Below are positions 1 to 10,781 of a DNA stretch of 10,781 bases, in pieces. Position numbers and translations under genes: made by a program. The DNA is from a virus (Duplodnaviria; Heunggongvirae; Uroviricota; Caudoviricetes). Positions within the stretch are counted from its first letter, which is position 1. Every line of letters begins with the position of its first letter. The stretch covers positions 1 through 10,781 of IMG/VR virus record IMGVR_UViG_2778261567_000015. The stretch is one strand, 5' to 3'. The notes beneath the pieces were generated by a model that made no database searches, was not told the DNA's origin, and saw nothing but the letters and a program-made list of their open reading frames with translations.

Positions 1-282
1 TTACCGCCGTAACCGCTCCGGCTTCTTCCAGTGGTACGTTATTTTTTCTTTCTCCCGATACAGTTCAACGCGGCGATTGTAGGCCAGCATTTCCAGAACG
101 CGGATCCGTATGTTGCGCATATCCACATCATTAAGCTGGATACCATCACGGCGCATCACCTCCGCAACAACACGCACATAATTTTCGGCGGTCACGCTGT
201 CCGGCTGCGTGGCCTGTTCGTCAGCCTGCTGGCTGATTCCGGCAACGCGACGGATTAATCGCAGTAGTTCGGCTTCTGTCAT
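1..282 (-). CDS. hypothetical protein (93 aa)
   Basis: Complete ORF: ATG at 280-282 with a GGGGG stretch just upstream on the minus strand, stop at 1-3. No family recognised. Confidence 0.45.
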   Translation of the reverse strand: MTEAELLRLIRRVAGISQQADEQATQPDSVTAENYVRVVAEVMRRDGIQLNDVDMRNIRIRVLEMLAYNRRVELYREKEKITYHWKKPERLRR

Positions 283-314
283 TGTGCCCCCATCGTTCTG
301 ATAGTCTGGTGTCG

Positions 315-530
315 TCGGGTCCTTCCTGGAATTATGGCCCGTTACGGGGCGGCGACCTCGCGGTTTTTATCTGTTTATGAAAATTTTTCTGGAAAAAGCA
401 TGTCGGCACTTCTCGAACATAACTATTTGTTTTTAAATAGATACACAATAAAAAGAAACGACACGGTAATCATCTGAAATGGCGATTTATGACGCTTTCA
501 TGTCGTTTCTCAGTTTTGTTCAATAATTGC
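315..530 (+). other. lambda-type cos site A (cosQ-like, cosN, long cosB-like region)
   Basis: 12-mer GGGCGGCGACCT at 347-358, preceded by CGGGTCCTTCC...GTTACG and followed by CGCGGTTTTTATCTGTTTATGAAAATTTTTCTGG, which closely matches my recollection of the lambda cohesive end and left-end sequence. Further lambda-like blocks follow (CATAACTATTTGTTTTTAAATAGATAC; inverted AGAAACGACA 454-463 / TGTCGTTTCT 501-510, R-site-like). Confidence 0.7.
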
Positions 531-537
531 GCTGCGG

Positions 538-1080
538 TTACTCGCCTTTCTTCTGTAGCAACTTTTCCGGTACGTCTCCGGTAGTTTCCATCAGGTAATC
601 AGCCAGTATCTTCGGGAGGTTGTCGGCAACTGTGGCACTGGCATTACAGGCTTTAGCCACTTCCTTTTTAAGTCCATCCAGCATGGCGGGGGTCATCTGT
701 GGGAATCCCCTTTGCATAGTAAGCGGGAGGCTGTCCATGATTGAAGAAATCTGGTTCGCCAGCTTTGAAAGCGCGTACAGGCAAAAACCTGTATCAATCA
801 CGTCGCCGCGTTCGCGCTCGTTTTTAAGCTCCTGCGCCTCCGCCTGGGCCGTCAGTAATCGGATTCTTACGCGTAAAAGTTCATCATCGTCGATATCGCC
901 TTTGTCGTTTGTAACCTGGTCAATTGCATTGCTTACCCGATTGTCTATCACGCTGGCAACATCGTAAAAAGCCTCGCGGCCTTTACGTTCAACGGGAGTC
1001 ACTCCCCACTTGTCGAACGCTGTCGCACTTACACGGCAGCTTTGCGCCATAGTTTTTTTGTTCATCAGGTGCGATTTCAT
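538..1080 (-). CDS. phage small terminase subunit, lambda Nu1 family (TerS-like)
   Basis: Translation aligns by eye to lambda Nu1 along most of its length (e.g. LLTAQAEAQELKNERERGDVIDTGFCLYALSKLANQISSIMDSLPLTMQRGFP versus Nu1 RLTRAQADAQELKNARDSAEVVETAFCTFVLSRIAGEIASILDGLPLSVQRRFP). Start is ambiguous: GTG 1092, ATG 1080 (GTGGGGA SD upstream) or ATG 1065 (MNKKT, matching Nu1 MEVNKKQ). Confidence 0.8.
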   Translation of the reverse strand: MKSHLMNKKTMAQSCRVSATAFDKWGVTPVERKGREAFYDVASVIDNRVSNAIDQVTNDKGDIDDDELLRVRIRLLTAQAEAQELKNERERGDVIDTGFCLYALSKLANQISSIMDSLPLTMQRGFPQMTPAMLDGLKKEVAKACNASATVADNLPKILADYLMETTGDVPEKLLQKKGE

Positions 1081-1092
1081 CAATATCCCCAC

Positions 1093-1257
1093 TTAGTTAA
1101 GGTTTCAGGTTGGTGTATTGGTTTTATATTTCCCTTTTTATTCATAAAGATAGAGCAAACAACAAAACCACCACCACCACCCTGAAAAAGCTCATAAATA
1201 GCGAAAAACCGCGAGGTCGCCGCCCCGTAACGGGTCCATATGCCGGAAAGGACCCGT
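1093..1257 (-). other. lambda-type cos site B (cosQ-like and cosN conserved, cosB diverged), oriented toward the TerS-like gene
   Basis: Reverse complement of 1201-1257 is a near-identical copy of 315-371 (ACGGGTCCTTTCCGG...GTTACGGGGCGGCGACCTCGCGGTTTTTCGC). cosN 12-mer is the complement of 1214-1225. Lambda-like sequence continues about 25 bp (CGCTATTTATGA), then becomes unique, including an (ACC)5 run at 1167-1182. Confidence 0.7.
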
Positions 1258-1280
1258 AAAAAAAGCCGGATTTCTCCGGC
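1258..1280 (-). terminator. intrinsic terminator (minus strand)
   Basis: Hairpin GCCGGA-TTTC-TCCGGC (1265-1280) followed on the minus strand by a U-run (A-run 1258-1264 on plus). Lies downstream of the decoration-protein gene. Confidence 0.5.
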
Positions 1281-1401
1281 CTGTCTCAGATAGTTTTCAG
1301 TATGCGATCGATGTCGCCGTCATCGCCTGGGTTTCTGCTTTAAATTTACTCGCCAGCGGTAGCGCCATGATGCTTTCATTCGTTGCCATCGTTCCCCCTG
1401 C

Positions 1402-1737
1402 TTATCGCGCCAGCGGCTGAACGGATACGCCAGAACCCGCAAAGGCGGCGCATTTTTTCGCGTCAGTGTCGACGCTCTCAGGCCAGTTTACGGCGGCGAT
1501 ATTAAATATCCCCGTCTTGTAACACTGTGCTGATTTCTGCTTTGACGTGTCCACAGGGTACGAGGTCAGATAAACAGCCTTGCCAGATTCCTGACCATCC
1601 CACGGCTTAAACTCGCCATTGTCCGCCAGCATCAGCGGGGTAAATTCCTGAATGACGCCAGCATCAGCGGCAAAATGTACCAGCGTCGTGGATACCTGCT
1701 GACTGCCTGCAAATAACTCAATGTATGGAGTGTTCAT
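1402..1737 (-). CDS. head decoration protein, lambda gpD-like (111 aa)
   Basis: Same length as gpD and shared blocks TPLMLAD, WDG, and GIFNIAAVNWPES...KKCAAFAGSGVSV versus gpD GTFRYEDVLWPEA...KKRTAFAGTAISIV. GGGGGA SD before the ATG at 1737. Confidence 0.75.
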   Translation of the reverse strand: MNTPYIELFAGSQQVSTTLVHFAADAGVIQEFTPLMLADNGEFKPWDGQESGKAVYLTSYPVDTSKQKSAQCYKTGIFNIAAVNWPESVDTDAKKCAAFAGSGVSVQPLAR

Positions 1738-1748
1738 AGAATCCCCCG

Positions 1749-2804
1749 TTAACCAATTTTGACGGTAACAAATTTGCGAATATCTGCTGGTACCGGCTGC
1801 GGTGCGCTGTGCGTCTGAACGTACTCAATCGCCGGATCGCCGTCTTCAATCCAGTTTTTCGGGTAGTACATGTTTTGCGTTGCACCAGTTCTTACCGCTT
1901 CCTGATCCATAATCGCGCCATAGGCCACCAGCCCTTTATTGTTGGTGTTGCCCAGGACCAGCAAATCAGGCTCAAGGAAATATTTTTCGGTACCGTCGCT
2001 GTCAGTGTATTTGCCGGAATAGACGATAAGGGCCAGATCTCCCAGATAGCCTTTAAAGCTCACCACTTCGCCCAGGTTTTTACAGGCCAGTTCGGCGGCG
2101 GATTCTGAACCACGGGAAAGATCGTACAGCTCACGGAATTTTTTAAAGCTGCGTAACGTGCGCCATACCTCAGCGCCCATAATCATGACGTTGGCGGGGC
2201 AACCTGCCTGATCTGCGTATAGTTCGATGTCATAGATTGGATCGTAAATATCTTTATCATGCTCGGACCATTTTTTACCCTTGGCCTGCTCTATGATGCA
2301 GTTTTCCGGTATTTTCCAGTCGATTTCATAGCGTTCTATGCCTTCGCCCTCAATGATGTTTTTTCCGGTCGTGACCGCATTTACAGCCAGCCATTCAACA
2401 CGCGCTTTAATGGCGTTTATCTGGCGGCGCATGTTGCCAGTAATCAGGCGCATACGGCGGTAGGTAGGGTCGTTAAGCAGTGCCGGATCTTCTCCAGCCA
2501 TGCGCATTATCGTTTTTAATGGATCGATTTCGTGCTTTGGCTTCATGTAGCCTGGTTTAATCGTGCTGGTTTCGTACCCTTTATCGCGCTGAACCTGGCT
2601 ACCCACCACAGGCGAACAAAACGCCGATATAGTGACTTCTTCAATGTCCAGGTTATCAAGCATGATGTTCTGGGTGCTGAATGTCGCCACGTTCGGGAAA
2701 AACAGTGTGGTAAACAGCGGACTGAATTTATATTCCGCAATATCCCCGCGATTCAGGTACGTGAAAAGCTGATTAGTTGTAAGTGCTGTTGCTTTTACTG
2801 TCAT
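1749..2804 (-). CDS. major capsid protein, lambda gpE family (351 aa)
   Basis: Multiple long blocks match lambda gpE from memory: KFSPLFTTLFF/KFDPLFLRLFF, KPGYMKPKHEIDP/TPGYVKPKHEVNP, DPTYRRMRLITGNMR/DPAYRRRRIIMQNMR, WSEHDKDIYDP/WSKRDKSTYDP, FKGYLGDLALIVYSGKY/YKGMYGDVAIVVYSGQY, YPKNWIEDGDPA/YPKNWVTTGDPA. GGGGGTG SD; start overlaps the upstream stop (TAATG). Confidence 0.9.
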   Translation of the reverse strand: MTVKATALTTNQLFTYLNRGDIAEYKFSPLFTTLFFPNVATFSTQNIMLDNLDIEEVTISAFCSPVVGSQVQRDKGYETSTIKPGYMKPKHEIDPLKTIMRMAGEDPALLNDPTYRRMRLITGNMRRQINAIKARVEWLAVNAVTTGKNIIEGEGIERYEIDWKIPENCIIEQAKGKKWSEHDKDIYDPIYDIELYADQAGCPANVMIMGAEVWRTLRSFKKFRELYDLSRGSESAAELACKNLGEVVSFKGYLGDLALIVYSGKYTDSDGTEKYFLEPDLLVLGNTNNKGLVAYGAIMDQEAVRTGATQNMYYPKNWIEDGDPAIEYVQTHSAPQPVPADIRKFVTVKIG

Positions 2805-3010
2805 TATTCACCCCCGTGAACCTGATTCATACCCAGCGCCGCGCGTAAATAGGCGCGTACCTGCCAGCCTGTTGACGGCTCAACCATCGCCAGCGGATCA
2901 AGTCCTGCCGCAATGCCTGCTTTTACGTTCTGCTGGTGGCGTTCCTTGAGCGCCTTCACGATGTCGGGGCTTATGTACACCGAAACACCGCCTTTTTTCT
3001 CTTCAGCCAT
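2804..3010 (-). CDS. hypothetical protein (68 aa), first gene of the morphogenesis operon
   Basis: ATG at 3008-3010 with AGAGGA SD; stop overlaps the capsid ATG (translational coupling). No family recognised. Confidence 0.5.
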   Translation of the reverse strand: MAEEKKGGVSVYISPDIVKALKERHQQNVKAGIAAGLDPLAMVEPSTGWQVRAYLRAALGMNQVHGGE

Positions 3011-3045
3011 AGTAAGAAATTCCTCTTTGACTTAAAAAATCATAA

Positions 3046-3094
3046 CTGGATGTTCATCCAGCTCTGATTATAATCAGGATTGCATTTTGTGCAA
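3046..3094 (-). promoter_or_regulatory. candidate sigma70 promoter of the morphogenesis operon with a perfect palindrome at the start of the leader
   Basis: Minus strand reads TTGCAC (complement of 3089-3094), 16 bp spacer, TATAAT (complement of 3067-3072). Perfect 7-2-7 palindrome CTGGATG-TT-CATCCAG at 3046-3061 sits between promoter and SD. Confidence 0.4.
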
Positions 3095-3174
3095 TGATGT
3101 TGAGTTGTGTTGCAAATTATGAAATGATTATCCCGATCATGTGTGCCAGCGCACCAAAAAACCTCATATGCAAA

Positions 3175-3241
3175 AGCCCGATAAGCCCCCTCTGACCTTA
3201 TCGGGCTTTTTTTGGGTACAAAAAAGCCGGATTTCTCCGGC
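3175..3241. terminator. tandem intrinsic terminators separating replication and morphogenesis modules
   Basis: Hairpin GCCCGATAAG...CTTATCGGGC (3175-3205) followed by a T-run (3206-3212). Second hairpin GCCGGA-TTTC-TCCGGC (3226-3241) with a flanking A-run, acting on the minus strand just after the stop at 3249. Confidence 0.55.
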
Positions 3242-3248
3242 TGTGTGA

Positions 3249-3521
3249 TTAGCTGTCTGGGTAATTACGCCATATTTCATCGCTTACACCATCTATACCC
3301 ATTTCAGCATAAGTGCGATCGACTGCCTTTCTCAGGTCTCCGAAGTTATCCGGCGGCTCCGGTGGCTTCTGTGCCTTCCTGGAACATTCCAGCCGTCGCA
3401 TCGTAACCTGATGCCGTTCCTTGTCTGTCTCCACCAGCTGCATGACTTCACCCCATCGCGCCGCCGCCCTCCGGTAAAATCCTTTCGCCTCGAGTTCCTC
3501 CGCTATGCGGTCATGTACCAT
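3249..3521 (-). CDS. PerC-like small transcriptional regulator (about 90 aa)
   Basis: ATG at 3519-3521 directly after the SSB stop with GGGGTGAGG SD. Motif MVHDRIAEELEAKGFYRRAAARW resembles the PerC family as I recall it. The longer track ORF (to 3641) overlaps SSB and is not favoured. Confidence 0.55.
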   Translation of the reverse strand: MVHDRIAEELEAKGFYRRAAARWGEVMQLVETDKERHQVTMRRLECSRKAQKPPEPPDNFGDLRKAVDRTYAEMGIDGVSDEIWRNYPDS

Positions 3522-3531
3522 CCTCACCCCC

Positions 3532-3942
3532 TCAGAACGGAATACCATCACCGTAAGGGTCATCGCCTCCCGCTGGTGGCTGATTACCCTGTGTGCCTGT
3601 GGTTTTGCGTCTGTTCCCGCCAGGACGTGCCGCGCGGGCACTGATTACGCTGTCTGCGATAACCTGCCAGCCCTGCCGCGTTTCGCCGTTCTGGCCTGTC
3701 CACTGGCTTACCTGCATCGTGCCGGATACGCTGGCAACATCGCCTTTTTGATGTTTAGCCAGGAAATCGGCCTGTTTGCCAAATGCGATGACCGATAACC
3801 ATAACGTCGCCTGTCCGTCCTGTGCCTGGCTGCATGGCAAAGATACCGCCATACGCGCCAGCGTCATCGGTGTGCCCTTGCTGGTCTGTTTTACCTGCGG
3901 GTCGTCCACCAGCCGCCCGTAAGCGGCTATCTGTGCCGTCAT
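3532..3942 (-). CDS. ssb: single-stranded DNA-binding protein (SSB)
   Basis: OB-fold-like N-terminal pattern (YGRLVDDPQV...WLSVIAFGKQADFLAKHQKGDVASVSGTMQVSQWTGQNGE), Gly/Pro/Gln-rich linker and acidic C-terminal tail DDPYGDGIPF, comparable to the DDDIPF tail of bacterial SSB. Confidence 0.8.
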   Translation of the reverse strand: MTAQIAAYGRLVDDPQVKQTSKGTPMTLARMAVSLPCSQAQDGQATLWLSVIAFGKQADFLAKHQKGDVASVSGTMQVSQWTGQNGETRQGWQVIADSVISARAARPGGNRRKTTGTQGNQPPAGGDDPYGDGIPF

Positions 3943-4208
3943 AATTCCACCTCTCCGGTTTTAACGTTGATGGTTGTTACCTGTTCCGCTTCGGCAATCT
4001 CCCGTTCTGTCAGCGTGGCAAAGTTTGCCGCCGCTGTGGTCATGAATGCGCTTATCAGTTCGGGATGTTCCTTCGCGTATCCTTCCCGCGTGTGGCGGTC
4101 TATCGTTCTGATTGCCACCTTTAAGGCGTGCTCTGTCATGTCTAACGCTTTATATTTTGGCGCTGTTCTGTCTCTGCGCATTTTGGTTATCTCCTCACTC
4201 ATGCTCAC
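3939..4208 (-). CDS. hypothetical protein (about 87-89 aa)
   Basis: ORF coupled to the ssb start (overlap). GTG at 4208 or ATG at 4202, with GTGAGG upstream. No family recognised. Confidence 0.45.
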   Translation of the reverse strand: MSMSEEITKMRRDRTAPKYKALDMTEHALKVAIRTIDRHTREGYAKEHPELISAFMTTAAANFATLTEREIAEAEQVTTINVKTGEVEL

Positions 4209-4395
4209 TTTTACGCCTCACTTTTTAAAGCGTCTCGCTTCGTCTCACTTGAGATTTTTGTGTTTTGTATGTGCATGTTTCATAAGTATTTTTTTACTCC
4301 TCACTTTTGAGCATGTATACAGGTGAGAAAGTGAGTAATCGTGTTAATATTTTGTAAAAACCTCACCATTACTCACTTTTGCTACTCACTTTTTA
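4193..4395. repeat. iteron-like array, candidate replication origin
   Basis: At least 7 direct copies of (C)TCACTTTT (e.g. 4203-4213, 4216-4227, 4296-4308, 4371-4380, 4384-4395) plus inverted GTGAG copies (4323-4335) in AT-rich DNA immediately 3' of the replication ATPase gene. Confidence 0.5.
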
Positions 4396-5790
4396 CAGTG
4401 GTCCTACATCATCACCATCAATGTAAATCACGGCGTCTTTTTCCAGTTTGGCTAACCATCGCCGCATATTTTTCACGTCATACCCAAGCCGTTTCATGTC
4501 ATCACGTAACAGCGGGATCGTGCACTTGTCGCCGTTCTGTGTACGTGAACGGATGCACCCCCATAGCGCGGTATGGTTTTCCGTCTTGTTGCCTGCCTCC
4601 TCGATGCGCTCCAGTTCAACGGGAGGGCGCGGCTTATCCACCACCACCAGCGACGTGATTAACTCCCCGTCAGCGTCGGTAAAAAGCTCCACCACCCGCA
4701 AATCATAGGCAGCCTCTTTGAGTTCCTCCGCGTCCTTCATTTTGGTGCATGAGATAACCAGCGCTTCGCTTCCTGCGTCCTCCCTGCGTATCCGGTATTC
4801 AGCATCCAGCGAAGCACGAAATGCACTGGAACCGCGCGCGCCTTTCGTCTCATCCTTGCCGGAATGGTGAACCACCAGCACCGTGGCCCCTGTGCGCCGT
4901 TTCAGTTCGTCACAACCACGGATAAACGCCCCCATATCACGGGAATCATTTTCATCATTGCCACCAAAGCACCGCGCCAGCGTATCCAGAATAATCATGC
5001 GTACAGGTTTACCCGTTTCCCGCTCCACCTGACGGGCAGCGATAACCAGTTCATCAACATCAAGCGGGACAGCCGGAAAGACCGGACGGTTTACCAGATA
5101 CAGATTTTTCACCTGCTCCCCGTGTACAACCTCCCACGCTCTCACGCGACGCGGTACACCAATACCGCCTTCACCAACCACATAGAGAACAGCGCCATGT
5201 GCAACCCTGCGGCCTCCCCACTGGCGGCCCGTGGAAACGTGACACGCCCACGAACCCGCAAGGAATGATTTATAGGAACCGCTTGCCCCGTATATGCTGC
5301 ATAGCGACGATGCCGGAATAATCCCCTTTACCACGTAATCTAATTGCGTGTCGTATCCGGCAGATCCAACGCTCATCGGTAGCGTGGTTTTTCGCTGGTG
5401 GCTCAGGCTTTCCCCGCGTTCCCATGTCTCCCTAAGCCGTGGAAGCTGGTCGCTCCATTCCTCCAGCAATTCGAAATTTTCAGAAAACAGGCGCGCTTCC
5501 TGGACTCCTGCGATTGCCAGTTTCGTGGCGATGGTTAACAACTGCACTTCGTCAATATTTCCGGCACGTATCACTTTCGCCCTGAACCGACCTTTATCAA
5601 CAATCTGCAAGTTATCCAGTTCGCTTAACTGATAACGCCCCAGGTAAACGGGAGGGACTGGATCGCCTGCTTTTTTGGCCTGTGCAATGATGTAGTGCTC
5701 TGCAAATGAGTGAGCATTATCACCCGCAAAAATAACCGCTTCGGTGTGTTTATCTTTCGGTAACAGTTTTACATTCGGTGCCAGTTTCAT
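4393..5790 (-). CDS. replication ATPase / helicase, RepA-DnaB-type RecA fold (465 aa)
   Basis: Walker A-like GASGSYKS, Walker B-like RMIILDT, VLVVHHSGK motif typical of RepA-like helicases; C-terminal basic domain. Start overlaps the upstream ORF stop (ATGA). Confidence 0.8.
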   Translation of the reverse strand: MKLAPNVKLLPKDKHTEAVIFAGDNAHSFAEHYIIAQAKKAGDPVPPVYLGRYQLSELDNLQIVDKGRFRAKVIRAGNIDEVQLLTIATKLAIAGVQEARLFSENFELLEEWSDQLPRLRETWERGESLSHQRKTTLPMSVGSAGYDTQLDYVVKGIIPASSLCSIYGASGSYKSFLAGSWACHVSTGRQWGGRRVAHGAVLYVVGEGGIGVPRRVRAWEVVHGEQVKNLYLVNRPVFPAVPLDVDELVIAARQVERETGKPVRMIILDTLARCFGGNDENDSRDMGAFIRGCDELKRRTGATVLVVHHSGKDETKGARGSSAFRASLDAEYRIRREDAGSEALVISCTKMKDAEELKEAAYDLRVVELFTDADGELITSLVVVDKPRPPVELERIEEAGNKTENHTALWGCIRSRTQNGDKCTIPLLRDDMKRLGYDVKNMRRWLAKLEKDAVIYIDGDDVGPL

Positions 5791-6086
5791 TTTTTACCCC
5801 TGAATCCGTTAATCATGGTTTTCAGCTTCTGGATGTTTGCCCGTGCTCTGGCGTTGCTGGTGGGCACGTTATGCGGCGCGGTCTGTACCAGAGAAAAATC
5901 ACGCCGGAACTGATAAACAGGCATCACGCAATCATATTCGTAACCTTCACGGCGGTAAGTTACGCACCGTCCCGCCACGCCCTTAATCATTACCGTGCCG
6001 CCGTACTGGTCGCGGTAAATATCACCGCGCGTAAATTTAGGGTGAGTGTTGCCACTGGCAGTTAAGCCAGAATATTTAAGTTTCAT
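5787..6086 (-). CDS. hypothetical protein (99 aa), coupled to the replication ATPase
   Basis: Complete ORF; 4-nt overlap with the downstream ATPase start. No family recognised. Confidence 0.5.
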   Translation of the reverse strand: MKLKYSGLTASGNTHPKFTRGDIYRDQYGGTVMIKGVAGRCVTYRREGYEYDCVMPVYQFRRDFSLVQTAPHNVPTSNARARANIQKLKTMINGFRGKK

Positions 6087-6091
6087 TATTT

Positions 6092-6325
6092 TTATTCTCC
6101 GGTGTGCTGTTCTTTATATCTGTCGTGCAATAGATCTATTTCTTGCAGTTCCATTATTACAGGCTCAAGAAGCGTTATTAATGCCGTGGCAATTCTTGAT
6201 TTTTGTTTGTCGCGTTCATTGTCGCCAAGTGTTTCAAGCCATATGCGCAATATTTCCAGCATGTTTTCACTGTGAGAAAGTGCAAGAAATGCGCGGTATA
6301 TTGTTTCGTGGTAAATATCACGCAT
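6092..6325 (-). CDS. hypothetical small acidic protein (77 aa)
   Basis: ORF in a tightly packed co-directional operon; start 2 nt after the upstream stop; Glu/Asp-rich. Confidence 0.5.
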   Translation of the reverse strand: MRDIYHETIYRAFLALSHSENMLEILRIWLETLGDNERDKQKSRIATALITLLEPVIMELQEIDLLHDRYKEQHTGE

Positions 6326-6326
6326 A

Positions 6327-6548
6327 TTAATCCCCGTCCGTCGTTTTTCTTAAAATAACCTCTGTCACGAAATCAGCATAATCGGCGGCGATATTCAGTA
6401 CATCAAGCCCCGTTGATTTATATTCTCTCGTGGAAAGTAAGAAAAAAGCCGCTCTAATAAGTTCTGGCATTGACGAAAGCGCATCAGCCGCATCATCAGG
6501 AACGCCGGAAAATTCCTGTTTCAGGGAATTAAAACGATCATCACGCAT
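6327..6548 (-). CDS. hypothetical small acidic protein (73 aa)
   Basis: Start chosen at ATG 6546-6548 (MRDD...), with GGGGTGGG upstream and just before the upstream gene's stop. The track's longer start at 6596 overlaps the upstream gene. Confidence 0.45.
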   Translation of the reverse strand: MRDDRFNSLKQEFSGVPDDAADALSSMPELIRAAFFLLSTREYKSTGLDVLNIAADYADFVTEVILRKTTDGD

Positions 6549-6762
6549 AACCCACCCCATTTTCACAATCAGCAACAAGAATATTTTTAGCGTCATTCAG
6601 CGACCGCGTGGCGGTGTATCGGATACATTCCAGGGCGAACTGTGTCCGGTCTTTCTGTTCTTCTCCCTGCGCAAGCTCTGCCGTGCATTCAATATCAATA
6701 AGCGCGTGCATCAGCGTAGTGAGTGCGGCGGCGGCTGCGTCCGGTGTGGTTTTATTGCACAT
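6541..6762 (-). CDS. hypothetical small acidic protein (73 aa)
   Basis: Start chosen at ATG 6760-6762 (MCNKTT...), preceded by GGAGGGG SD and overlapping the upstream stop. Confidence 0.45.
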   Translation of the reverse strand: MCNKTTPDAAAAALTTLMHALIDIECTAELAQGEEQKDRTQFALECIRYTATRSLNDAKNILVADCENGVGYA

Positions 6763-6983
6763 GTACCCCTCCGCATTTTTTTTCGTTAGAAATAAGCGTT
6801 CTTCTTTCCTGTTCATCGCTCAGGAATACGCAGACCTCACCGCTAAGGCGTTTAAGTAAGCCGATGATTGCCCCTGATTCGCTGTCGGTCATCATGCCAG
6901 GGTAATCCTCTGCCAGTGCGCAAATAACTTCGATTTGGTGGGCGCGTTCTGCTGCCTGTTGTAGCGTGATTTCCTGGCTCATA
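6752..6983 (-). CDS. hypothetical small acidic protein (76 aa)
   Basis: Start at ATG 6981-6983 overlapping the stop of the Icd-like gene (ATGA); ends at the TAA at 6752-6754. Confidence 0.5.
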
Positions 6984-7146
6984 AGCCTACCCCCTGACGA
7001 ATACGGGCGACAAAAATAAGATGTGCGTGCGGCAGCTGGGCGCGGGCTTCGCGTTCTGTTGCTGCCGTGACGGTAAAGAGTGAGGTTTGTTTTTCCTGGC
7101 ACTGCATAAAGCGCCAGACAAAGTAAGGGCGTGCGGATACAGCCAT
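6979..7146 (-). CDS. Icd-like small protein, paralog 2 (55 aa)
   Basis: ATG at 7144-7146 with AGGAGCC SD. Paralogous to 7433..7630 (FVWRF...TEREAR...FVARIRQG). Family name 'host cell division inhibitor Icd-like' is from memory. The track ORF extending to 7482 is treated as a non-functional extension. Confidence 0.5.
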   Translation of the reverse strand: MAVSARPYFVWRFMQCQEKQTSLFTVTAATEREARAQLPHAHLIFVARIRQGVGL

Positions 7147-7149
7147 GTG

Positions 7150-7432
7150 AAAGGCTCCTGTAGTGAAATTAAGGAGTCTCGCTACTACGCTGCTAAACGG
7201 GGTGGCGAGACGTAACAGGGTTAGCAGACTGGCACTACAGGAACCAGCGAGCGCAAAGGCTCCCCCGTTACGCCCCGCCATAATGCGGGTATGGGTAGGT
7301 TTACGGACACAAAAAAACCGCATATCGGAATGTAAGCGGCTGTCCGCTGTAGTATTCAGGCTGCTAAACCCGGTCGCCATGTGGGCGATGGGTGAAGCAT
7401 ACAGCCCCGTGATAATTTTTTGCAAGCGGTTT
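7150..7432 (-). other. structured spacer between the Icd-like paralogs; candidate riboregulatory leader
   Basis: Open in both strands with no convincing protein. Contains two direct GCTGCTAAAC copies (7189-7198, 7360-7369) and the complementary GGGTTAGCAGAC (7218-7229); inverted CCTGTAGTG/CACTACAGG (7158-7166 / 7233-7241) overlapping the SD of the 7146 gene; weak hairpin plus 7-nt U-run on the minus strand at 7311-7339. Confidence 0.3.
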
Positions 7433-7630
7433 TTACGCATGATGTGACCCCTGACGAATACGGGCGGCAAATACAGCAACACAACCGGACGGGCAACGGT
7501 TACGCGCTTCGCGTTCCGTCCAGGCGGTTACGTGGATTATTTGAGATTCTCCGGCACTCAGTGCCAGAAAACGCCACACAAAGGCCGTTTGTGTGTGTAC
7601 AAGGTGTGGTATATGATTTACAGCAACCAT
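7433..7630 (-). CDS. Icd-like small protein, paralog 1 (65 aa)
   Basis: ATG at 7628-7630 with AGGAGCC SD; motif FVWRFLAL...TAWTEREARNR...FAARIRQG. First gene downstream of the minus-strand promoter at 7732-7761. Confidence 0.55.
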   Translation of the reverse strand: MVAVNHIPHLVHTQTAFVWRFLALSAGESQIIHVTAWTEREARNRCPSGCVAVFAARIRQGSHHA

Positions 7631-7700
7631 AACGGCTCCTAGTTTACGTTGTTGGTTAGAAGCCCCGTATGTGTTCCAGCACTGCGGGGTTTCGTCTTTT
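7585..7700. repeat. copy 1 of a ~115-bp duplicated unit (5' leader plus first codons of the Icd-like gene)
   Basis: Shares with 8330-8447 the blocks CGTTTGTGTGTGTA, CCATAA, TGGTTAGAAGCCC and a GC hairpin followed by a T-run (7663-7700), in the same order and spacing. Confidence 0.6.
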
Positions 7701-7719
7701 CTGTACCTTGCATCAACAA

Positions 7720-7802
7720 GGTGTAAGACACAATGTAAAATAACGGTGTCTTACACGTCAACCCTTCAAAATATTTTTTTTTCGTGTATATTGTCTTACA
7801 CC
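7720..7802. promoter_or_regulatory. divergent promoter pair with inverted-repeat operator
   Basis: Inverted repeat GGTGTAAGACAC (7720-7731) / GGTGTCTTACAC (7745-7756) and a third half-site TGTCTTACACC (7792-7802). Minus-strand promoter TTGACG (complement of 7756-7761) and TACATT (complement of 7732-7737). Plus-strand promoter TTCAAA (7765-7770), 16 bp, TATATT (7787-7792). Confidence 0.45.
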
Positions 7803-7822
7803 AAAAACATGAGGGGTTAAAC

Positions 7823-8002
7823 ATGGCAACGGGTCCAAAGAATGCAAAATCACAATCTGTAACTGCACGTATTGCCCATGAAATTATTGAAGGCATGGAG
7901 AACGTGAAAGAAGAAGGTGAAAGCACGGGGCAGTTTATAAACGCAGCCATGCGCGGCGAAATCAAACGCCGCCAGCGTCGCAAGGCCAAAGAATCAGAAT
8001 AA
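7823..8002 (+). CDS. ribbon-helix-helix (CopG/Arc/MetJ-type) DNA-binding protein (59 aa)
   Basis: ATG at 7823 with GAGGGG SD. Predicted beta-strand QSVTARI followed by two helices (AHEIIEGMENVKEEG, STGQFINAAMRGEI) and a basic tail. The track's GTG start at 7784 lies inside the promoter and is not favoured. Confidence 0.55.
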   Translation: MATGPKNAKSQSVTARIAHEIIEGMENVKEEGESTGQFINAAMRGEIKRRQRRKAKESE

Positions 8003-8059
8003 TCACTATCAGCGCCGTGGTGTGAGGTACTACGGCGCATTGCTTTACAGGGCAGTACC

Positions 8060-8287
8060 ATGACCAACAACACACTATCACCAATACAAGACACGCAAAC
8101 GCAAGATGATGAAATCATCCGGCAAAGGCAGTCAGAAGCCTGCGCCAGACTTGAGGAAGAACTAACCAGAACAAAAATACCACCACCAGCGCCGCGCTTA
8201 GTGCCACCAGAAAAATTTGCCCTTGAAGATTTTGTCGATAAATACCCACGGCGGCTTAAATCCGGCAAAAACCGACCGCCAGGATGA
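8060..8287 (+). CDS. hypothetical protein (75 aa), acidic N-terminus, Pro-rich centre, basic C-terminus
   Basis: ORF downstream of the RHH gene on the same strand. Weak SD (AGGG 12 nt upstream). Followed by hairpin GAAACGGA-TTAT-TCCGTTTC (8308-8327). No family recognised. Confidence 0.4.
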   Translation: MTNNTLSPIQDTQTQDDEIIRQRQSEACARLEEELTRTKIPPPAPRLVPPEKFALEDFVDKYPRRLKSGKNRPPG

Positions 8288-8329
8288 GTGCACAAAACCG
8301 AACTCTGAAACGGATTATTCCGTTTCCGG

Positions 8330-8447
8330 GGCGTTTGTGTGTGTATAAAGAGTAAGCTATGCTCTTTTATAGCCATAATCTTTACCTCAATTAATGGTTT
8401 GGTTAGAAGCCCGTTGGTGTTCATAGCGCCAGCGGGCTTTGCTTTTT
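8330..8447. repeat. copy 2 of the duplicated leader unit, carrying a remnant Icd-like start
   Basis: Same block order as 7585-7700. Minus-strand ATG at 8374-8376 with SD GAGGTA encodes MAIKEHSLLFIHTQT (compare MVAVNHIPHLVHTQTA) and then loses the Icd-like sequence. GC hairpin 8409-8437 plus T-run 8438-8447. Confidence 0.55.
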
Positions 8448-8506
8448 GTGTTGATTGTGTGTAATGTGTCACTACACATAAATACATTACATGAGGTGTA
8501 ATTAAC

Positions 8507-8686
8507 GTGTCAACACACAAAAACGAAAGGCGTGGTAATCCTCCGTTCCAGTTCCGTTTAGATCCTGACTTACGGGAAAAGATGGAAAAGGCACAACAAC
8601 ATGACGGCGATGATTCTCTTGCTGCCTGGATAAAGCGAATAATCCGCAAAGAATTACAGCAACGCGGCATAGAACCCAAAGGGTAA
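8507..8686 (+). CDS. Arc/Mnt-type ribbon-helix-helix repressor (59 aa, GTG start)
   Basis: GTG at 8507 with GAGGTG SD 8 nt upstream; stop TAA at 8684-8686. PPFQFRLDPDLREKMEKAQQ...SLAAWIKRIIRKEL resembles P22 Arc (PQFNLRWPREVLDLVRKVAEE) and Mnt (PHFNFRMPMEVREKLKFRAE). Absent from the ORF track because it is under 60 aa. Confidence 0.55.
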   Translation: MSTHKNERRGNPPFQFRLDPDLREKMEKAQQHDGDDSLAAWIKRIIRKELQQRGIEPKG

Positions 8687-8836
8687 TTACATTGCCCACC
8701 AGCCTGATAGCGGCTATCATTCCCGTGCTTATGTTTGGGATCACATACACATAAGGCGCAGCAGGTTAATTGTTCACAAGGGCGTTCCGGCAACGGGGCG
8801 CTTTTTGTTATGTTCATCGTGTTATGCCTCACACCA

Positions 8837-9043
8837 TTACGCAGCCGTTCCGCGTGCTTCCTGCTCACGTTCTTTCATCCATGCGATTACGTCTTCCTCA
8901 TACCATCCGCGACGGCGTAAACCAACGCGAAAACCCTGCGGAAATTCTCCGGCGTTGATCATGCTTTGAAGCGTGCTGTCTGCCTTGATGTAGATAAGTT
9001 TTTTTACTTCCTGGCGAAAGATGACTTTTTTGATTGCTTCCAT
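8837..9043 (-). CDS. alpA: AlpA-family phage transcriptional regulator (68 aa)
   Basis: ADSTLQSMINAGEFPQGFRVGLRRRGWYEEDVIAWMKERE fits the AlpA/Vis MerR-like HTH pattern (...GxFPKPxKLGxRxxxWxxxEVxxW). Position next to the integrase is typical. Confidence 0.75.
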   Translation of the reverse strand: MEAIKKVIFRQEVKKLIYIKADSTLQSMINAGEFPQGFRVGLRRRGWYEEDVIAWMKEREQEARGTAA

Positions 9044-9060
9044 CGTGATTTACCTTGTGA

Positions 9061-9151
9061 ATCCGGTGTATTCCGGTGACAAATACGGTAAATCATCGGA
9101 TACGGGTAAAAACAGTTCCCACCGTTTTTAAACTGTTAGAACCGTTTTTTA
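9061..9151. promoter_or_regulatory. repeat-rich region upstream of alpA (candidate operator sites)
   Basis: Direct repeats TCCGGTG (9062-9068, 9072-9078), TACGG(G)TAAA (9084-9092, 9101-9110) and ACCGTTTTT (9121-9129, 9141-9149), the last pair forming an inverted arrangement with GGTAAAAAC. Confidence 0.35.
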
Positions 9152-9176
9152 TGTTGGTGATTTGAAAGGGATTTAT

Positions 9177-9198
9177 AAAAAAAGCGGCATTTCTGCCG
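9177..9198 (-). terminator. intrinsic terminator (minus strand)
   Basis: Hairpin GCGGCA-TTTC-TGCCGC (9183-9198) followed on the minus strand by U6 (A-run 9177-9182 on plus), directly after the stop at 9211. Confidence 0.5.
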
Positions 9199-9210
9199 CT
9201 TTGAGGATTG

Positions 9211-9462
9211 TTACCGCCATTTTTTTGGCCTGCCTCCGGTCTTCATGGTTGCCGGACGAACTACCCTGTCGATACTTTCAGCCATATTCCTGGATGCCCC
9301 ACGGGATACCAGGAAATCTACTACCTGTTTTTTTGATGGGGCCGTCGTTCTGTCCTCCGGATCGTAGGTTGACCAAAATTCATGCTGAACCATCAGGGCC
9401 AGTTGCAGCCCGTCGCAATTGCATCTGAAATTTTTTTGCATCTTAACGGTTTCATGTTTCAC
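9211..9462 (-). CDS. hypothetical protein (up to 83 aa), doubtful
   Basis: ORF between int and alpA ending just before a terminator, but GTG start with weak SD and no recognisable family. Confidence 0.3.
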   Translation of the reverse strand: MKHETVKMQKNFRCNCDGLQLALMVQHEFWSTYDPEDRTTAPSKKQVVDFLVSRGASRNMAESIDRVVRPATMKTGGRPKKWR

Positions 9463-9539
9463 GGCCTTGTCGTTAAATTTGATGCAATTATACGACGGTT
9501 TTACATGGTTTTCGTAGTTTTTACTGGTTTTCTGTACAG

Positions 9540-10781
9540 CTAAACGGCTCGGATACCCCTTTTACCACTGGCGAGGGTTACGCCCGTCGCCGCAGCCTCG
9601 ACAAATTCGCCCCACCAGCGCATAAGCACCACGCGTTTTTCTATGTAGTTGCTCCGGTTGTATGCCCGTCTCACTTCGTTAGTGTCGACGTGGGCAAGTG
9701 CGGCCTCGATTACGTCCGGCTCGAATCCTTCCTCGTTCGCTGCTGTACTGAATATGGCGCGTAATCCATGAGACACCAGCACGCCAGCGAACCCCATGCG
9801 TCGTAATGCTGCGTTTGCTGTCTGGCTGTTCATTGGCTGCCGTGGGTCTTTCAGACTCGGGAAAACATAATCGCGGTGGTGGCTGATTGGTTTCATGGCC
9901 TCCAGCACCGCCATAGCCTGACCGGAAAGTGGGATAACGTGATCCCTGCGCATCTTCATGCGTCCGGCGGGTATCGTCCAGCGTTGCGCGTCCAGGTCGA
10001 TTTCATCCTACCGCGTTGATGACGCTTCGGCGGGACGGGTTACGGTCAGTAACTGCCATTCAATCAGTAATCTGGTCTGCCGTTCTGTTGCCGATACTGA
10101 TAAAGCCTGCATAAGCTCCGGCAACTGTTCGGGGCGGATTGTTGGCATATGTTTTTTTACAGGGGAGGGGAACGCCTTACGCACATTCATAGCCGGATTG
10201 GCATCAATCAGCCCACTGTTGGCGGCGTAATCCATTACCTCATTAACGCGCTGTAAAACCCGTTTGAGTGTTTCCAGGTTGCCGCGCTCCTTGATGGGGG
10301 TAAGCACCTCAACGAACCTGCGAGCGGTCAGGGTGTCTATTGGGGTGTTGCCGATGAACGGGAATACATATTTATCCAGCGATCGCCAGATGTCTTTAAT
10401 CGTGTTGGGGGCCAGATTCTGGCTGATTTTCACCTGGTACCATGCCGCCGCCACATTTTCGAACGTGTTCCCTTGTCTTCGGGCCTCTGCCTCTCGTTTT
10501 TTCTTCTCATGGCCCTGCGGGTCAGTTCCGGCACTGATTAACGCTCTGTACTCGCTACGGCGTTTTCTGGCATCAGCCAGGGAAACATCATCAAGCGATC
10601 CAAAACTCAGCAATATTCTTTTTTTGTCCGATGGCCGGTAGTAGGAAAATCGCCAGAGTTTTGATCCGGACGGTTTGACCAGGAGAAAAAGCCCTCCGCC
10701 GTCCTGTAGGGTGTATTCCTTTTCCGCTGGTCTGGCTGCTTTGATCTGCACCGTGGTTAATGGGGGTGTTTTTCTCGCCAT
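9540..10781 (-). pseudogene. int: P4-type tyrosine integrase interrupted by a single in-frame TAG
   Basis: N-terminal ORF 10011-10781 (GGGLFLLVKPSGSKLWRFSYY...) and C-terminal ORF 9540-9959 (HGLRAIF, RRAYNRSNY) are in the same frame, separated only by TAG (complement of 10008-10010). Read-through gives ...SSTR*DEIDLDAQRWTIPAGRMK..., where related integrases usually have Trp, consistent with TGG to TAG. Start codon is at the window edge. Confidence 0.75.

Follow-up and report, generated by a model that had tools for sequence, protein, structure and literature searches.

A conserved coat and decoration gene module in a putative phage-inducible chromosomal island of the EcCICFT073 family

We analysed a 10,781-nucleotide stretch of DNA from a virus of the Caudoviricetes (IMG/VR record IMGVR_UViG_2778261567_000015, positions 1 to 10,781; hereafter the window, whose positions are used for all coordinates), which carries a module of capsid genes at 1402-3010 on the minus strand. 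Judged by gene content, this module very probably belongs to a Gram-negative phage-inducible chromosomal island (PICI) of the classical type, a member of the EcCICFT073 family in the subtype that encodes a small terminase (TerS). The module consists of three closely packed minus-strand genes for proteins of 68, 351 and 111 amino acids (aa):

Positions 2804-3010, minus strand: first gene of the operon, 68 aa, orthologue of CFT073 c1498 (phrog_3255, E 8e-37).
Positions 1749-2804, minus strand: lambda gpE-type (HK97-fold) major capsid protein, 351 aa, orthologue of CFT073 c1499 (PF03864, phrog_29, PDB 3BQW).
Positions 1402-1737, minus strand: lambda gpD-type head decoration protein, 111 aa, orthologue of CFT073 c1500 (PF02924, phrog_49, PDB 1TD0).

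The 351-aa protein matched the Pfam profile Phage_cap_E (PF03864) over its full length (profile positions 14-328 of 329, E 2e-49, 168.8 bits against a cut-off of 22.9) and the PHROG family of major head proteins (phrog_29, E 4e-104), and it aligned with lambda gpE at 42% identity over 343 residues, again full length (BLASTP 1e-91), as well as with the lambda gpE structure 7VI9 (E 2e-80). PDB entry 3BQW, a "putative capsid protein of prophage" of 351 aa, matched at ~95% identity (E 7e-227); this entry is the crystal structure of CFT073 c1499, an HK97-fold orthologue of the window coat protein. The 111-aa protein matched the Pfam profile HDPD (PF02924; E 5e-18, 65.7 bits against a cut-off of 29.1) and the head decoration family phrog_49 (E 1e-27) and was 36% identical to lambda gpD, with phage 21 SHP as its top PDB match (1TD0, E 2e-13) and lambda gpD (1C5E) also found (E 4e-9). 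These profile and structure-database matches identify the two genes as genuine homologs of gpE and gpD that share a dedicated operon, as had been claimed in an initial annotation of the window made from its letters alone; that annotation's 68-aa first gene and its E-then-D order, the reverse of lambda's, were borne out as well.

In lambda, D (5747-6079) precedes E (6135-7160), and the helper prophages at three of the loci compared (L011, L012 and L015) likewise have D then E, opposite to the window, whereas the E-then-D order was kept in every island examined. The window shares with lambda homologous E, D and Nu1 genes (42%, 36% and 33% identity) and an identical cosN 12-mer, and differs from it in gene order and in lacking A, W, B, C, FI and FII. 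When all other sizeable open reading frames (ORFs) of the window were scanned with Pfam and PHROG, no portal, protease, scaffold, large terminase (TerL), tail or lysis gene was found, in agreement with the initial annotation, which had reported the first four as absent. Separately, a metagenome contig (P0031) whose coat sequence falls in a class 54% identical to that of the window encodes a 463-aa protein with both Phage_cap_E and HDPD domains; it is consistent with an E-D fusion or read-through and fits the fixed E-then-D adjacency.

The stop codon of the 68-aa gene overlaps the ATG of the capsid gene. Its product had zero Pfam or NCBIfam matches, and the PHROG family that it matches (phrog_3255) carries the annotation "function unknown". 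An AlphaFold2 model (pLDDT 74.5) had a strand-helix-helix topology and no Foldseek match in the PDB at E<1. We rejected an identification with lambda gpW, likewise 68 aa, with which there was no similarity, and a ribbon-helix-helix assignment was an unsupported guess from the topology. The gene was present 5' of gpE in PICIs whose gpE is 62-94% identical to that of the window and was not called in islands of the 54%-identity class.

The window is a single array with nearly all genes on the minus strand and the integrase at one end. Along that strand it reads integrase, an AlpA-like helix-turn-helix (HTH) protein, two Icd-like proteins, DUF4222, RepA/AAA_25, a single-stranded DNA-binding protein (SSB), PerC, the capsid operon, a cos site, TerS, a second cos site and a 93-aa gene. 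The traits of a Gram-negative PICI are present, namely a terminal integrase gene with co-oriented genes, its own RepA with iterons, a size within the range of ~10-15 kb and cos/TerS, and the phage-like genes of the island are limited to E, D and TerS. The core of a PICI as defined for SatelliteFinder (integrase, an alpA/merR/stl regulator, primase-replicase, capsid morphogenesis and small terminase; Moura de Sousa & Rocha) comprises five kinds of gene, all of which occur in the window as judged by gene content, the program itself not having been run.

In four closely related islands (L003-L006), each ~10.3-10.9 kb from the start of int to the stop of the last gene, the island lies between yejM and yejO, with yejM before int and yejO, narP and ccm after the 93-aa gene. 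L003 was 99.93% identical to the window over 1-7008, and L004 was 99.4% identical over 1-7014 and 99.7% over 7447-10781. The initial annotation had allowed that the island might continue beyond position 1, a suggestion contradicted by L003 and L004, in which it ends at the 93-aa gene and chromosomal genes follow. Nothing phage-like was found in the 10-kb flanks of the near-identical islands, including the lambdoid head module (portal, protease, TerL) whose presence nearby was to be checked, and the flanks held no other head, tail, lysis or immunity genes of the kind left by a defective prophage, only yejM on one side and yejO/narP/ccm on the other. A related island in the complete genome of DEC9B had the same flanks, with a tRNA-Pro gene between yejM and int. 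Because chromosomal genes flank near-identical and related islands, the element is a satellite and not a prophage, and its int-alpA-rep/ori-capsid-terS/cos layout supports the earlier suggestion of a helper-dependent type of satellite. Helper-dependent excision, replication and high-frequency transfer have been shown experimentally for EcCICFT073 alone (Fillol-Salom 2018, PMC6092414).

That the window is instead a fragment of a defective lambdoid prophage is extremely improbable. Lambda-family E, D and Nu1 homologs and cos sites would fit such a fragment, as would an integrase pseudogene, a sign of decay, but the near-identical islands of ~10.3-10.9 kb bounded by yejM and yejO are without portal, protease, TerL, tail and lysis genes, the backbone is the PICI set int-alpA-DUF4222-RepA-SSB-PerC, and both the 68-aa gene and the order of E before D are specific to PICIs. 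Two other classes of satellite differ from the window in gene content. Capsid-forming PICIs (cf-PICIs), such as EcCIEDL933 (Alqurainy et al.), share a satellite-encoded coat and int, alpA and rep genes related to those of classical PICIs, but they also encode portal, protease, head-tail connectors, HNH, TerS and TerL, and they assemble complete capsids of small size; of these genes, the window has TerS alone. The cf-PICI set (portal, maturation protease, head-tail adaptor/connector, TerL, HNH) had no match in the ORFs of the window or in the L003-L006 islands. The P4-like set (Psu, Sid, Delta, alpha) had no Pfam or PHROG match among the window ORFs, and P4-like satellites have only AlpA-like and Icd-like proteins in common with it.

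This organisation of the window is already known, being both published and built into satellite-detection tools. EcCICFT073 has capsid and head decoration homologs in c1499 and c1500 (Fillol-Salom 2018 ISME J, PMC6092414), preceded by a c1498 of 68 aa and accompanied by a capsid of 351 aa (c1499) and a c1501 product of 137 aa (supplementary table of the same paper, PMC6092414), and the order at the CFT073 locus (L014), with genes for the 68-aa, coat, decoration, 137-aa, 144-aa and 93-aa proteins, matches the window layout. A major capsid gene is found in 21 of 29 reference Gram-negative PICIs (Mageeney 2023, PMC10111431). Thus the layout noted by the initial annotation is real, while its novelty does not stand, given c1499/c1500 (PMC6092414), the 21 of 29 islands (PMC10111431) and the capsid component in the SatelliteFinder core.

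With EcCICFT073 the window shares the backbone of int, alpA, Icd-like, DUF4222, replication gene, SSB and PerC; the 68-aa gene, the 351-aa coat (~95% identity) and the 111-aa decoration protein (97% identity); and the two lambda-type cos sites and the 93-aa last gene. The two islands differ in that EcCICFT073 has a D5-type primase, RppA, an intact c1501 and a position next to phoQ, whereas the window has a RepA/AAA_25 helicase, a full-length Nu1-type TerS, a 310-bp deletion that has removed the c1501-type gene, an amber codon in the integrase, and relatives located at yejM-yejO. PICIs embedded in the late genes of their helpers have also been described (Mageeney 2023, PMC10111431), and those of the 11capE type share the E-then-D module and the backbone; two examples, L011 and L012, carry the same module and sit within helper genes E and A. 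These lie inside a prophage, unlike the window's relatives, which are chromosomal, by yejM (and tRNA-Pro in DEC9B).

Relatives of the module were collected by exact-protein look-ups; a scan of contigs with coat-protein peptide patterns, which were too specific, returned no relative. The exact coat protein of the window was found on at least 109 contigs of Escherichia coli, and the capsid module occurred at 90% nucleotide identity or more in 654 of 5426 complete E. coli genomes, with at least 80% of the query covered in 598 (~11-12%). Coat homologs at 94, 85, 67, 62 and 54% identity all lay in int-(alpA)-DUF4222-primase/RepA-(SSB)-E-D islands of E. coli and Salmonella, the Salmonella island being without SSB and some helper-embedded copies without a recognisable alpA. 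Among 50,697 phage records (409 phage hits), the best match to the coat protein was 47% identical, and since no phage match exceeded this value the module does not represent a recent capture. The identity classes of E and D tracked each other, as for a co-inherited pair. Ratios of nonsynonymous to synonymous substitution rates (dN/dS) were 0.09-0.15 for gpE and, among close relatives, 0.03-0.12 for gpD at dS 0.1-0.8, and 0.1-0.3 for the 68-aa gene. Taken together, these comparisons indicate that the capsid module is a satellite-specific lineage that is inherited as a block and under purifying selection.

Most relatives have a fourth gene in the operon, encoding 134-141 aa and represented in CFT073 by c1501 (137 aa), of which the window retains a remnant:

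Positions 1297-1389, minus strand: frameshifted 30-codon remnant of a c1501-type gene (alignment with E. coli DEC9B; remnant translation).

Compared with DEC9B and CFT073, a frame-breaking deletion of 310 bp with its junction at 1338/1339 has taken nearly all of this gene, and the spacing between gpD and TerS is equally short in the nearest relatives, L003-L006. Residues 49-131 of c1501 were 37% identical (E 2e-10) to residues 416-493 of the 501-residue S49 head protease of phage 4, CFT073's own helper. The c1501-like stretch lies outside the S49 domain (146-293), in a repeat-containing C-terminal extension of the protease, and in lambda the corresponding extension is also expressed as the scaffold Nu3, from a nested nu3 coding sequence. 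The c1501 homolog of the related island L008 matched the protease tail of another helper (E 1e-9), an intact fourth gene matched the C-terminal end of the "head maturation protease" family phrog_53 (E 2e-8) and, by tblastn, a gene annotated Nu3, and the c1501-type proteins and helper protease extensions have in common IMALPxA-type repeats and an FxxFMxxHSPxAV tail. These alignments make the c1501-type gene homologous to the Nu3-type scaffold extension that the head protease of the cognate helper carries. What c1501 resembles is the extension found in phage-4-like helpers rather than that of lambda, and BLASTP comparison with lambda Nu3 and FI gave no similarity. RefSeq labels c1501 "phage head-tail connector protein", a search of the literature found no paper tying it to Nu3, and it had no sequence match in the PDB.

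Upstream of the module are a putative control region and a regulatory gene, and terminator-like hairpins lie on both sides:

Positions 3034-3095, minus strand: predicted control region of the operon (sequence and conservation across islands).
Positions 3172-3242, minus strand: pair of terminator-like hairpins separating the capsid operon from the PerC gene.
Positions 1259-1282, minus strand: terminator-like hairpin ending the capsid operon.
Positions 3249-3521, minus strand: PerC-family regulator, 90 aa, directly 5' of the capsid operon (PF06069, E 2e-44).

The control region has a perfect palindrome, ATTGCA-N5-TGCAAT, at the -35 position (3079-3095), a TATAAT box (3067-3072) and then a leader hairpin with a T-run (3034-3063). 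It was conserved in the 94%, 85% and 62% classes from E. coli while its flanks diverge, and in a Salmonella island the promoter block alone was conserved, with one half-site different; at nine E. coli loci, each island had a single copy of the exact palindrome. The promoter looks activator-dependent, because it has no good -35 element, a palindrome in that place and a leader terminator, and candidate regulators are AlpA, PerC, the 68-aa protein and helper antitermination. A consensus sigma-70 scan of positions 1-4400 returned zero promoters. The region upstream of the operon had no DNA match among the 50,697 phage records, and so there is no evidence that the promoter was copied from a phage late promoter. 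A 22-nt hairpin core, AAAAAAGCCGGATTTCTCCGGC, is identical at 1259-1280 and 3220-3241 and brackets the operon, as if the capsid block were a cassette; the same hairpin stands 5' of the operon in CFT073 and DEC9B. The PerC-family gene was called at 90 aa in L003-L006; PerC-like genes of PICIs are reported either to leave the locus of enterocyte effacement unaffected or to repress it (PMC11773190).

The packaging parts of the island lie 3' of the operon:

Positions 1185-1256, minus strand: cos site 1, with cosN at 1214-1225 and a lambda-like flank, 5' of TerS as in lambda.
Positions 538-1080, minus strand: Nu1-type small terminase, 180 aa, full length (PF07471, E 5e-22; phrog_57, E 1e-50).
Positions 316-387, plus strand: cos site 2, with cosN at 347-358, inverted relative to cos site 1.

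Both cos sites contain the exact lambda cosN 12-mer, GGGCGGCGACCT, and EcCICFT073 likewise has two functional cos sites (Fillol-Salom 2018, PMC6092414). TerS was 33% identical to lambda gpNu1 over residues 3-180, a range that includes the region binding TerL in lambda, and its exact sequence is on record as "terminase small subunit [Escherichia coli]". Since it had no sequence match in the PDB, it is not closely related to RppC, which has been crystallised. The two cos regions (316-387 and 1185-1256) form an inverted repeat around TerS with 72-nt arms that are 82% complementary. The Nu1 gene of L008 (L008:12138-12722) is on the opposite strand. This orientation suggests that the TerS segment may be able to invert through recombination between the cos repeats.

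The remaining features of the island are as follows:

Positions 9540-10781, minus strand: tyrosine integrase pseudogene (W258* amber).
Positions 8837-9043, minus strand: candidate AlpA-type HTH regulator or excisionase, 68 aa (PHROG excisionase/regulator, E 5e-7).
Positions 4200-5790, minus strand: RepA/AAA_25 replicative helicase (4393-5790; PF13481, E 3e-44; phrog_2850, E 1e-221) with a presumed origin (4200-4392).
Positions 3532-3942, minus strand: SSB homolog (PF00436, E 2e-16).
Positions 1-282, minus strand: last gene of the island, 93 aa (phrog_1561, E 4e-57; size and terminal position as for the 93-aa last gene of EcCICFT073).

Multiple CTCACTTT iterons, direct and inverted, occupy 4200-4392 just 3' of the RepA gene; since PICI origins sit 3' of the rep gene (Fillol-Salom 2018, PMC6092414), this segment is the presumed origin. 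The HTH protein at 8837-9043 matched Pfam Phage_AlpA weakly (E 0.004, under the curated cut-off), and the proteins at the equivalent position in L007 and L008 do match that family. The 93-aa protein had no PDB or Pfam match, and a gene for 91-94 aa held the terminal position in most related islands examined. Two Icd-like paralogues are encoded by minus-strand ORFs at 6979-7482 and 7433-7630, and a segment of ~430 bp here (7009-7446) is missing from the closest relatives, L003 and L004. A 409-aa ORF at 7639-8868 was rejected as almost certainly spurious, because relatives have small annotated plus-strand genes that it crosses or to which it lies antisense.

In the integrase, codon 258 (10008-10010) is changed from TGG to TAG at base 10009, upstream of the catalytic domain; the gene is intact (413 aa) in L003-L006, and the shortened 257-aa product was found on 4 contigs only. 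Of the context listed by the initial annotation, the RepA-type replicon, cos and TerS stood as described, while the integrase is present with an amber codon and AlpA rests on a weak match. The amber integrase and the deleted scaffold-like gene mark the window copy as a decaying one by its sequence, and because of these two lesions the island is probably immobile, being unable to excise.

Regarding what the capsid module does, the best explanation overall, which joins PICI identity to an assembly role for the module, is in our view a probable one, and the assembly mechanism itself is a tentative proposal, somewhat less likely than not. On helper induction, the operon would be transcribed from its conserved, activator-dependent-looking promoter, and its coat and decoration proteins would assemble on the portal and protease of the helper, joined in intact islands by the short scaffold. 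The resulting shells, made wholly or partly by the satellite, would receive PICI concatemers, which the PICI's Nu1-type TerS and the helper's TerL would cut at the two lambda-type cos sites. The benefit of having its own shell subunits is unproven, and these are dispensable in EcCICFT073, the laboratory prototype.

Several observations weigh against an assembly role. Deletion of c1499 or c1500 leaves both transfer by the resident helper and interference with lambda unchanged, and an island with c1499 replaced by cat is transferred efficiently (Fillol-Salom 2018, PMC6092414); because these islands still transfer, the module is dispensable for packaging in the conditions tested. Expressed alone, c1499 does not inhibit lambda (2019 Mol Cell follow-up), and co-assembly with a helper's gpE or scaffold is uncertain at 42-47% coat identity. 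In the window itself, the integrase and the scaffold-like gene are both broken, and since dS = 0 among all copies with the exact window gpE sequence, ongoing selection on its E/D allele is not assessable; the E and D genes of this copy may no longer do anything.

The same experiments bear on whether the module interferes with phages, its coat or decoration protein poisoning the capsid assembly of certain phages, helpers or non-helpers, or engaging a capsid-sensing defence as a decoy. We consider such a role very unlikely. PICIs commonly interfere with their helpers, and a divergent coat could conceivably form dead-end co-assemblies, but interference with lambda, together with packaging redirection, maps to Rpp (c1503), the other cloned genes give no lambda inhibition (2019 Mol Cell), and the c1499 and c1500 deletions do not relieve interference.

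The lack of a phenotype for these deletions would also fit late genes that were simply captured from helpers, serving mainly as a backup for a helper capsid gene interrupted by an embedded PICI and otherwise being near-neutral cargo. Such a backup has been proposed (PMC10111431), the PICIs embedded in helper genes E or A do carry the module (L011, L012), and the window has lost the fourth gene while E and D remain. However, the absence of any sequenced phage above 47% identity argues against recent capture, dN/dS of ~0.1 indicates purifying selection across islands that are not helper-embedded, and the synteny is conserved and unlike the phage order, which makes this account quite unlikely.

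In our reading the published negatives are, in turn, not decisive, because each marker sits inside the capsid module. The EcCICFT073 derivatives tested are, to judge from the strain names, c1501::tetA, the main one, or c1499::cat (PMC6092414), with c1501 corresponding to L014:7084-7497. We infer from this strain nomenclature that tetA disrupts c1501; the published tests of phenotype, transfer and packaged-DNA size would then all have used islands with a disrupted module, and the intact module would apparently never have been examined with its native helper.

These considerations apply to the possibility that the module redirects capsid size, through a coat acting like Ccm of the Staphylococcus aureus pathogenicity island (SaPI) SaPIbov5 and/or a short Nu3-like scaffold acting like CpmB of SaPI1, so that assembly would be forced into small shells with room for a single ~11-kb island and none for the helper genome. 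There are precedents in two satellite families, which employ a coat homolog or a short scaffold with the tail of the helper's scaffold: Ccm, from a cos-packaged island, is homologous to the HK97-fold coat of the helper, as is the window coat, and CpmB is a short scaffold with the coat-binding tail of the helper scaffold, to which the short Nu3-like protein of the window's relatives is analogous, c1501-type proteins having a C-terminal tail in common with the scaffold extension of their cognate helper. In addition, Pasteurella multocida PICIs with a capsid homolog (PmCI172) make small capsids (PMC6092414), and the negatives came, by the strain names, from c1501::tetA or c1499::cat islands. In contrast with the small capsids produced by SaPI redirection, none have been seen for EcCICFT073, whose packaged DNA is phage-sized (Fillol-Salom 2018, PMC6092414); DNA packaged with lambda and EcCICFT073 was all of phage size, CFT073 lysates gave no band of a PICI monomer, and transfer in phage-sized terms was very good for the c1499::cat island, whose c1501 is nominally intact. 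The SaPI Ccm and CpmB proteins have no sequence relationship to those of the window, and the scaffold-like gene is entirely missing from it. We therefore regard size redirection as unlikely. The initial annotation had suggested that satellite-encoded subunits might redirect or remodel the assembly of the helper capsid; the homology of c1501 to a scaffold tail makes this idea more concrete, and the EcCICFT073 data argue against it.

An extension of the assembly proposal, doubtful at present, is that in intact islands c1498, coat, decoration and c1501 form a four-gene "shell kit" that builds satellite-specific and possibly smaller capsids on the helper portal and protease. Such a kit may have been missed because the published EcCICFT073 derivatives are marked inside the block and because lambda Nu3 is unrelated to c1501. 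The puzzle is thus a coat and decoration pair that is conserved and under purifying selection in a satellite that does not need the pair for laboratory transfer, and it is sharpened by a fourth gene homologous to the helper's scaffold tail and by published knock-outs that were apparently made in already disrupted modules. Should the intact module build or reshape capsids, classical Gram-negative PICIs would count among the satellites that remodel capsids, and the shell kit, if real, would be intermediate between classical PICIs and cf-PICIs both in evolution and in mechanism.

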